Assembly: GCA_964016885.1 (NCBI GenBank)
Contig: OZ024741.1
Span: 285,076,001 to 285,140,000 of the forward strand
Length of the DNA stretch: 64,000 nucleotides
Reading direction: 5' to 3'
DNA from: Eledone cirrhosa
Lineage: Eukaryota
The notes beneath the pieces are model-generated. The model was not told the DNA's origin and made no database searches. It was given only the letters and a program-made list of their open reading frames with translations. This document shows positions 45,289 to 46,740 of the stretch, piece after piece; positions within the stretch are counted from its first letter, which is position 1; the number at the start of each line of letters is the position of its first letter. The position numbers and the translations under genes are program-made.

Positions 45289-45466
45289 AATATATATATA
45301 TATATAAATTGGATTAAATGCTCTGAAATAGCGATATATATGTGAAGATAGACATAGAATATTCGAAAATATTCTGTATGTTTATAATAAACATTTTGAA
45401 GACCTAATCGCTATAGAATAGAATACGTCACGTATTACAATTAGATTCTCGATAAAAGCAAGGGAA

Positions 45467-45509
45467 GTAACCTACGCGTTTCATTCTTATTAGAAATCTT
45501 CAGGATTAC
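45467..45509 (-). ncRNA. Minimal type I hammerhead ribozyme (inverted arm)
   Basis: Reverse complement of the 46217-46259 motif. Confidence 0.85.
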
Positions 45510-45809
45510 ATACCCAGTGCTTTTATCGAGAATGACACAGCTAGAGACTTATAGAATACTTAGCTGTGTACAAGAACTGGTTTGAAAGAGCGGTTACCGG
45601 TCCGGCAGAAATTAGAAATTGGATTAAATGCTCTGAATTAGCGATATATATGTGAAGATAGACATAGAATATTCGAAAATATTCTGTATGTTTATAATAA
45701 ACATTTTGAAGACCTAATCGCTATAGAATAGAATACGTCACGTATTACAATTACTATAGAATAGAATACGTCACGTATTACAATTAGATTCTCGATAAAA
45801 GCAAGGGAA

Positions 45810-45852
45810 GTAACCTACGCGTTTCATTCTTATTAGAAATCTTCAGGATTAC
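45810..45852 (-). ncRNA. Minimal type I hammerhead ribozyme (inverted arm)
   Basis: Reverse complement of the 46217-46259 motif. Confidence 0.85.
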
Positions 45853-46216
45853 ATATCCAGTGCTTTTATCGAGAATGACACAGCTAGAGACTTATAGAAT
45901 ACTTAGCTGTGTACAGGAACTGGTTTGAAAGAGCGGTTGCCGGTCCGGCAGAAATTGCTTTTATCGAGAATCTAATTGTAATACGTGACGTATTCTATTC
46001 TATAGCGATTAGGTCTTCAAAATGTTTATTATAAACATACAGAATATTTTCGAATATTCTATGTCTATCTTCACATATATATCGCTATTTCAGAGCATTT
46101 AATCCTATTTCTAATTTCTGCCGGACCGGCAACCGCTCTTTCAAACCAGTTCCTGTACACAGCTAAGTATTCTATAAGTCTCTAGCTGTGTCATTCTCGA
46201 TAAAAGCACTGGATAT

Positions 46217-46259
46217 GTAATCCTGAAGATTTCTAATAAGAATGAAACGCGTAGGTTAC
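46217..46259 (+). ncRNA. Minimal type I hammerhead ribozyme
   Basis: gtaatc-CTGAAGA-t-ttct(aata)agaa-t-GAAA-cgcg-TA-ggttac. Stem I gtaatc/ggttac, palindromic stem III ACGCGT, predicted cleavage after 46253. Confidence 0.85.
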
Positions 46260-46526
46260 TTCCCTTGCTTTTATCGAGAATCTAATTGTAATACGTGACG
46301 TATTCTATTCTATAGCGATTAGGTCTTCAAAATGTTTATTATAAACATACAGAATTTTTTCGAATATTCTATGTCTATCTTCACATATATATCGCTATTT
46401 CAGAGCATTTAATCCAATTTCTAATTTCTGCCGGACCGGCAACCGCTCTTTCAAACCAGTTCCTGTACACAGCTAAGTATTCTATAAGTCTCTAGCTGTG
46501 TCAGTCTCGATAAAAGCACTGGATAT

Positions 46527-46569
46527 GTAATCCTGAAGATTTCTAATAAGAATGAAACGCGTAGGTTAC
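46527..46569 (+). ncRNA. Minimal type I hammerhead ribozyme (tandem copy)
   Basis: Identical to 46217-46259, 310 bp downstream. Confidence 0.85.
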
Positions 46570-46691
46570 TTCCCTTGCTTTTATCGAGAATCTAATTGTA
46601 ATACGTGACGTATTCTATTCTATAGCGATTAGGTCTTCAAAATGTTTATTATAAACATACAGAATATTTTCGAATATTCTATGTCTATCTT

Positions 46692-46740
<49 letters not shown>

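Follow-up and report, generated by a model that had tools for sequence, protein, structure and literature searches.

Introduction

The array of hammerhead ribozymes studied here raises the question of how a tandem repeat without a protein of its own is moved about a genome. It lies at 45306-46702 of a stretch of 64,000 nucleotides of the Eledone cirrhosa assembly (contig OZ024741.1), called the window below. A preliminary description, made from the letters of the window, had read the array as a candidate retrozyme, that is, a tandem hammerhead repeat yielding circular RNAs and mobilised by Penelope-like elements (PLEs). For animal retrozymes this route, with a circle and a PLE helper, has so far been proposed and not demonstrated in the accessible literature, and the 310-bp family to which the array belongs makes it testable.

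In the accessible text of Li, Clavereau and Pollet (2026; 10.64898/2026.07.22.740005), retrozymes are tied to PLEs via co-occurrence and homology with pseudo-LTRs (pLTRs), and local tandem growth of their arrays is proposed; the sampling given there includes no mollusc. An octopus repeat annotation, in its accessible part, leaves ribozymes unmentioned. The traits of PLEs set out in the available sections of Craig et al. (2021; PMC8557442) include an inverted 5'-truncated copy and a tail of 30-40 bp. For Poseidon of Anolis, in vitro work traces the tail to the distance separating two internal start sites; cutting and extension take place on both strands, the start site is the same for both of them, the priming site is unlike the target, and the ribozyme is dispensable, uncleaved RNA being the main template (Frangieh et al., 2024; PMC11167929).

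The reading proposed here, to which we give a probability of roughly 60%, is that the array is a protein-free 310-bp hammerhead repeat inserted by a borrowed PLE protein, which probably went round one circular monomer.

A Two-Armed Array of 310-bp Units

The array comprises about 4.4 head-to-head units of 310 bp, 98-100% identical, which bears out the earlier account of some 4.5 near-identical units in two divergent arms inside (TA)n. Unit positions are counted here from the first base after a predicted ribozyme cut, window position 46254. The left arm (45306..45956, minus strand) has about 2.0 units in 651 bp, including a 33-bp tandem duplication (45721..45786) private to one of its units; its outer 3' end lies at the long, or “tail”, site at unit position 167, and its 5' end at unit position 170. 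The right arm (45955..46702, plus strand) has about 2.4 units in 748 bp, from a 5' end at unit position 12 to the short site at unit position 139, which forms its outer 3' end. The two 5' ends meet in a head-to-head junction with a 2-nt overlap (45955..45956). The long 3' end is joined to (TA)n at 45306..45312 (minus strand). At the short 3' end (46692..46702, plus strand), an internal AT tract continues straight into the target (TA)n. The target microsatellite occupies 45158..45305 on the left and 46703..47222 on the right.

The unit is non-coding, as had been stated, since, apart from microsatellite read-throughs, no open reading frame in the repeat reaches 120 aa; 106 of its 310 bases are G or C. 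One internal copy of a conserved priming region lies at 46332..46420 (plus strand). This region is made up of two hairpins, an AU tract with the short site, and a tail of 26-33 nt reaching the long site, and it is likely to be the signal read by the PLE protein.

The Hammerhead and Its Fold

The motif scan found four type I hammerheads in the array. Two are on the plus strand, at 46217..46259 and 46527..46569, with predicted cuts after 46253 and 46563, and two on the minus strand, at 45810..45852 and 45467..45509, with predicted cuts after 45816 and 45473. All four are identical, with a 6-bp stem I, a CUGAAGA core, a GUA triplet, a 4-bp stem II closed by a U.U mismatch, and a stem III reduced to the palindrome ACGCGU, in agreement with the minimal type I hammerhead previously noted in each unit. 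Rfam gave no match at the gathering score and only weak matches to Hammerhead_HH9 (E 0.24 and 1.2). Stem I is extended by a 16-bp stem, 46193-46208 with 46266-46281 (46193..46281, plus strand), that encloses the ribozyme; described at first as perfect, it has one mismatch in the copy at 46503. The further hairpins named at that stage are present in the sequence.

The motif and the fold of the repeat are not due to chance, because the monomer folds with z = -4.17 (none of 100 shuffles was equally good) and because the exact 43-nt hammerhead of the window's subfamily has 943 genome matches vs. 0 for a reversed-pattern control. Conservation of the structure through compensatory changes is supported by an alignment of 12 rows that represent only about three independent lineages: 15 of 31 pairs, which lie in the enclosing stem, in stem II and in the pair of hairpins ahead of the AU tract, changed on both sides, against 0-3 in slid controls. 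Within the enclosing stem, 8 of 14 pairs are altered on both sides across sibling families. Covariation is seen in stems I and II, and no family observed has lost the self-complementarity of stem III.

The ribozyme is predicted to be weak because of the U.U mismatch that closes stem II. In a lone motif, closing of stem III is unfavourable: it has a 2-nt loop, and its 1-bp form is estimated at +2.7 vs. -2.5 kcal/mol without stem III; two stem III palindromes would self-pair at -7.5 kcal/mol. The energy estimate favours a dimer for cleavage of this hammerhead.

A Young Family With Subfamilies and Siblings

The 310-bp repeat is a young, dispersed, multi-copy and mobile family without protein. At least 249 matches at 98-100% identity to the unit are found on many contigs of the 3.0-Gb assembly, and the exact short end has 167 genome matches. 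The long-end pattern has 870 forward matches; doubled, they give an estimate of roughly 1,700 insertions, for which only the forward count is used, the reverse-strand count of 3,567 being inflated by overlapping matches. Twenty fetched long-end matches revealed a younger subfamily, 97% identical to that of the window and with 14,254 hammerhead matches. Four of the six majority differences between the two subfamilies fall within the ribozyme, including a compensated stem I swap, and ribozyme variants linked in this way to a 15-fold difference in copy number could show whether the cleavage rate tunes spread.

Sibling families have units of 316-322 bp that are 65-80% identical, and 2,750 core-pattern matches. 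They retain stem II, the enclosing stem and both hairpins preceding the AU tract; their cores are of the U3-A8 type or CUGAUGA, and their stem III is self-complementary with a different sequence.

The window holds other elements as well. A separate two-armed hammerhead repeat at 43628-44730 has a 595-bp unit with a U3-A8 core, a long stem II and a palindromic stem III; many contigs hold tandem copies of it, 98-99% identical, one of whose ends recurs at query position 431, with another near 590. Other families are represented by hammerhead-like motifs at 32351-32420, 36317-36366, 45044-45113, 47344-47413, and 54505-54550, several of which have a palindromic stem III; the window is unusually dense in such motifs. 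The segments 51964-53148 and 18295-18798 are, judging by motifs, presumably fragments of other PLE-like RT/GIY-YIG ORFs, and 32769-33815 (minus strand), with a restriction-like endonuclease motif, is taken to be a broken non-LTR retrotransposon fragment; neither assignment has a Pfam match. The segment 27469-28788 (plus strand) is a large exon of a short-chain dehydrogenase gene, whose C-terminus is long and of low complexity.

Insertion Ends and the Short-Plus-Long Rule

In a sample taken blind to the ends (the first 31 loci on one contig, C1), 24 of 31 loci are two-armed. Overlapping or edge-cut loci (20 of L001-L030, L065, L216, and the second insertions in L034 and L228) were excluded from the end counts. 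One short and one long outer end are found in 98 of 101 two-armed insertions; the second end is broken in the other three, and neither short-plus-short nor long-plus-long pairs occur. A subset picked independently of the ends gives short-plus-long in 36 of 36. The short outer end lies at about unit position 139, where the internal AT tract merges into the flank, and the long one at positions 158-172, mostly 165; the two are 26-33 nt apart. Either end can belong to the longer arm, which bears the short end in 23 of 36 cases. The 3' flanks are TA runs in 114 of 122, and the sequence of the short site resembles the (TA)n target. The position of the inner 5' ends varies; in 37 of 54 two-armed insertions they share an overlap of 1-5 nt. 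An apparent excess of 5' ends at unit positions 12-30 (18/122, the range being chosen post hoc) was discarded, as it did not recur in an independent set (10/106, p = 0.12).

A two-armed shape with fixed outer ends inside the monomer is therefore the rule for the family, and sibling families obey the same end rule. The retrozyme reading of the preliminary description stands in what it says of a young, tandem, non-coding hammerhead repeat moved by PLEs; it missed the fixed internal priming ends and the rule of two arms. Movement by PLEs, then argued by analogy, is now supported by the insertion ends themselves.

Apparently one-armed insertions number 26. At the 5' end, 10 have (TA)n; 2 have a tiny long-end second arm, 7 stand head-to-head with another mobile element, 1 (L298) is described below, 1 is at a gap, and 5 are unresolved.

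Autonomous PLEs, Chimeras, and the Search for a Partner

Two abundant autonomous PLEs of this genome also insert into (TA)n with short-plus-long pairing and have tails of about 40-60 nt. PLE-B carries ORFs of 455 and 784 aa, the latter (ORF2) with RVT_1 and GIY-YIG, and its copies with both ends in view follow the rule in 8 of 8 cases. The second has a single 1,217-aa ORF that found no match in a Pfam search; its RT and endonuclease regions align to the two-ORF PLE (E 3e-9). PLE-type priming from both DNA ends is very probably what made the 310-bp insertions, to judge from their ends; it is the best-supported step, because the autonomous PLEs here share the end pairing and because tails and start sites of this kind are published. 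The rule of one site per arm would also constrain how PLEs build their own tandem and inverted structures, a question stated as open in the available part of PMC8557442.

Copies of such elements were also noted in their own right. A young two-ORF PLE with overlapping frames (455 aa + 784 aa) occupies 2064-6860 of locus L133 (contig C3:169160500-169170000); it has a 1.2-kb pseudo-LTR, without a hammerhead by eye, and many intact 784-aa frames exist in the genome. In the window, an abundant PLE is represented at 56700-58583 by a broken, 5'-truncated copy whose long-site end abuts (TA)n; this element has 29,757 first-look candidates and open frames of up to about 1,200-1,300 aa elsewhere.

No cognate PLE with a homologous terminal repeat was found when the two abundant PLEs and the sibling loci were compared: the terminal repeats of PLE-A and PLE-B have no DNA similarity to the 310-bp unit, and 40 sibling-core loci and 30 loci of a third sibling yielded more retrozymes only. 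An abundant element sharing the tail was considered as the cognate PLE and rejected, since it is the younger subfamily. These results bear on the possibility that an autonomous PLE is the source of the units, either as its ordinary pseudo-LTRs or as pieces of its 3' part. PLE-type ends agree with that explanation, as does L298, in which a co-directional PLE ORF ends about 180 bp upstream of the array, after a short inverted piece. Yet in a search with four PLE protein pieces, L298 is the sole and partial exception: no PLE ORF runs into the array in the other family loci among 128 or in the 40 and 30 sibling loci, and the upstream neighbour of a unit is another unit. With the terminal repeats of the two abundant PLEs also unrelated, we consider this explanation largely refuted already and highly improbable; the genomic copies do not always abut a PLE ORF, as it had been said that pseudo-LTRs would.

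Some retrozyme arms are joined head-to-head to other elements. L300 combines a short-end retrozyme arm with a PLE-B arm bearing the PLE-B long end, and L067 a long-end retrozyme arm with an element that has a PLE-A-type short end. In L060, L284, and L301, the partners are three unrelated PLEs of a third type, that of L301 being broken at several places. A sibling chimera (L048/L101) has two long ends, against the rule, so that among the head-to-head chimeras across families two obey it and one breaks it. L313 and L013 also hold chimeras, in which the partner of the retrozyme arm is a PLE or a second retrozyme. Chimeras may have arisen in one event that used two RNAs, or through deletions that later fused neighbouring elements. 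If the two ends do take different RNAs, no dedicated PLE partner would be needed.

The Template: Circle or Multimer

Both priming sites fall within the cut-to-cut monomer, and a linear monomer template would therefore limit arms to 139-172 nt. In fact, the predicted cut site is crossed by 200 of 228 arms. Of the 228 5' ends, no more than 3 come within 3 nt of this site, vs. 4.4 expected, and mismatches at unit junctions (0/912 and 2/1,196) indicate no excess of error. Since arms cross the cut site with neither a pile-up of 5' ends nor an excess of junction errors, the template is either circular or an uncleaved multimer.

In assembled sequences of the young subfamily, divergence is 0.14% inside an arm, 0.07% from one arm to the other and 0.72% from locus to locus. 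Variants found at a single locus are fixed throughout both of its arms in these assemblies, for example in 18/18, 17/17 or 14/14 units, and 18 distinct fixed variants were counted among 40 young loci. Median arm length is 1,048 bp in young and 573 bp in older insertions (p = 0.003), which counts against length growing with age; within subfamilies, the correlation weakens to p = 0.05 and 0.28. As one haplotype fills all units of both arms in young insertions and the youngest arrays are the longest, a repeatedly copied RNA circle is favoured and was probably the usual template.

The locus-fixed changes, read on the RNA strand, include 11 A>G vs. 1 T>C (8 vs. 1 distinct sites, p = 0.009), and 7 of the 8 A>G sites are in predicted stems; single-unit changes have no such bias (14 A>G vs. 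18 T>C). The excess fits A-to-I editing of the template RNA, and tolerance of G.U pairs could account for part of it.

Among long loci, 9 of the 21 older and 3 of the 30 young ones have variants restricted to part of their units. Such variants alternate in L012, as from a dimer template, follow a rough period of 5 units in L064, and switch alleles in blocks along the arms of L068 and L275, the switch being G>A at a catalytic-core G in L068 and A>G in stem I in L275. Such partial patterns fit multimer templates or later conversion; the blocks of L275 and L068 are compatible, in addition, with a template changing between rounds.

In three sequencing runs labelled as other organisms, the unit was assembled as one 340-nt contig, corresponding to a closed 310-nt loop. 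This contig was rejected as evidence for a circle: tandem DNA yields an identical loop, and in these runs PLE-A reaches a similar depth, which traces of host DNA would explain.

Proposed Mechanism and Its Alternatives

Read-through transcription of an array would yield a multimeric RNA, whose adjacent hammerheads would pair via the stem III palindrome and cleave as dimers. A host ligase may then close the monomer set free in this way into a circle, which would be stable because it holds a lone, weak hammerhead. A GIY-YIG PLE protein would cut (TA)n on both strands, and priming from the two 3' ends would begin at one of the two sites each; the RT would run repeatedly round one circular monomer, with A-to-I edits of the circle copied into every unit, and the two cDNAs would be joined at their far ends. 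Some older arrays may have been altered later by local duplication or conversion. The most specific version, in which PLE enzymes perform rolling-circle reverse transcription from both break ends on one 310-nt circle, with end-locked sites, edits in every repeat, and chimeras made from two RNAs, is put forward tentatively, at somewhat under even odds.

PLE priming from both ends could also have used an uncleaved multimeric read-through transcript as template, circles, if any, being a by-product. Uncleaved RNA is the main template of a PLE in vitro (PMC11167929), the ribozyme here appears weak, L216 shows that a homogeneous donor array can exceed 20 units, the block or alternating variants of L012, L068, and L275 would be explained, and the absence of a 5' pile-up at the cut site is predicted equally well. 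What speaks against a multimer is that a daughter cannot exceed its donor, so that the many haplotypes, each fixed in a long array, need a frequent bottleneck of one unit followed by lengthening, and that a rare edit would be expected in a single unit of a multimer and not in all of them. We regard it as the less likely template, yet as a real rival of the circle. Insertions of about one unit per arm might instead have been lengthened later in DNA by slippage or unequal crossover, as for vertebrate retrozymes, a model discussed in the accessible text of 10.64898/2026.07.22.740005. Periodic variants in L064, L046, and L069 do indicate local duplication, but the youngest insertions are the longest and almost devoid of single-unit changes (none in L209, L212, L213, and L226), and each arm would need to have expanded on its own ahead of any mutation, which makes this route improbable.

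For the preferred reading, a PLE protein copying one RNA circle, the family itself offers the means of a test. About 15,000 near-identical units in the estimated 1,700 insertions bear the PLE footprint and pinpoint the start sites, so that an assay combining a 310-nt RNA with a PLE protein can put the route to the test.

Comparison With Known Systems

The family agrees with metazoan non-LTR retrozymes in its tandem repeats (about 150-450 bp in these elements) with one type I hammerhead per unit, in being non-coding, with a G+C content below 50% and no LTR architecture, and in being dispersed, multi-copy, and mobile. It also agrees in its strongly self-paired monomer under structural selection, here from few independent lineages. 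In the accessible text of PMC7229834, axolotl HHR_Amex2 likewise has a stem III of 2 bp and a basal U.U in stem II, its dimers cleaving better than its monomers. Axolotl retrozymes are reported in the available parts of two studies to cleave well only as dimers and to be circularised by RtcB in vitro (PMC7229834, PMC7761336). Coral, mussel, and axolotl retrozymes are proven to cleave and to form circles, according to the accessible texts, whereas for the 310-bp family both are predictions from sequence (PMC7229834, 10.64898/2026.07.22.740005). Since 8 of 9 predicted Xenopus retrozyme dimers failed to cleave in vitro, as stated in the accessible text of 10.64898/2026.07.22.740005, the motif alone is no proof of activity. 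Two-armed insertions, fixed internal ends, a tail, and (TA)n targeting are not described for retrozymes in the available parts of PMC7229834 and 10.64898/2026.07.22.740005. The help of PLEs is argued there, as far as these parts go, from co-occurrence and pLTR homology, and in the 310-bp family from the insertion ends, without a homologous pLTR.

With endonuclease-bearing PLEs, as the accessible literature portrays them, the family shares the inverted 5'-truncated copy, the optional tail, microsatellite or AT-rich targets, and the extension of both strands. The strict pairing of one site per arm is absent from the in vitro work on PLEs, and the short site resembles the target in the 310-bp family, whereas the priming site of Poseidon differs from it (PMC11167929). 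Unlike PLEs, the family has no ORF, the RT plus GIY-YIG ORF with its pseudo-LTR being absent, and its arms are concatemers of one short unit.

LINE-1 twin priming also uses two primers and gives divergent arms with microhomology at the inner junction, as in the 310-bp insertions. These differ from it in that both outer ends are fixed, no poly(A) tail is present, and the target is (TA)n.

Retrozymes and the idea of a PLE helper are already published; the paired, fixed-end, two-armed footprint was not found in the accessible main texts. As far as its sequence can tell, the 310-bp family combines the features of an animal non-LTR retrozyme with the insertion mode of a non-autonomous PLE.
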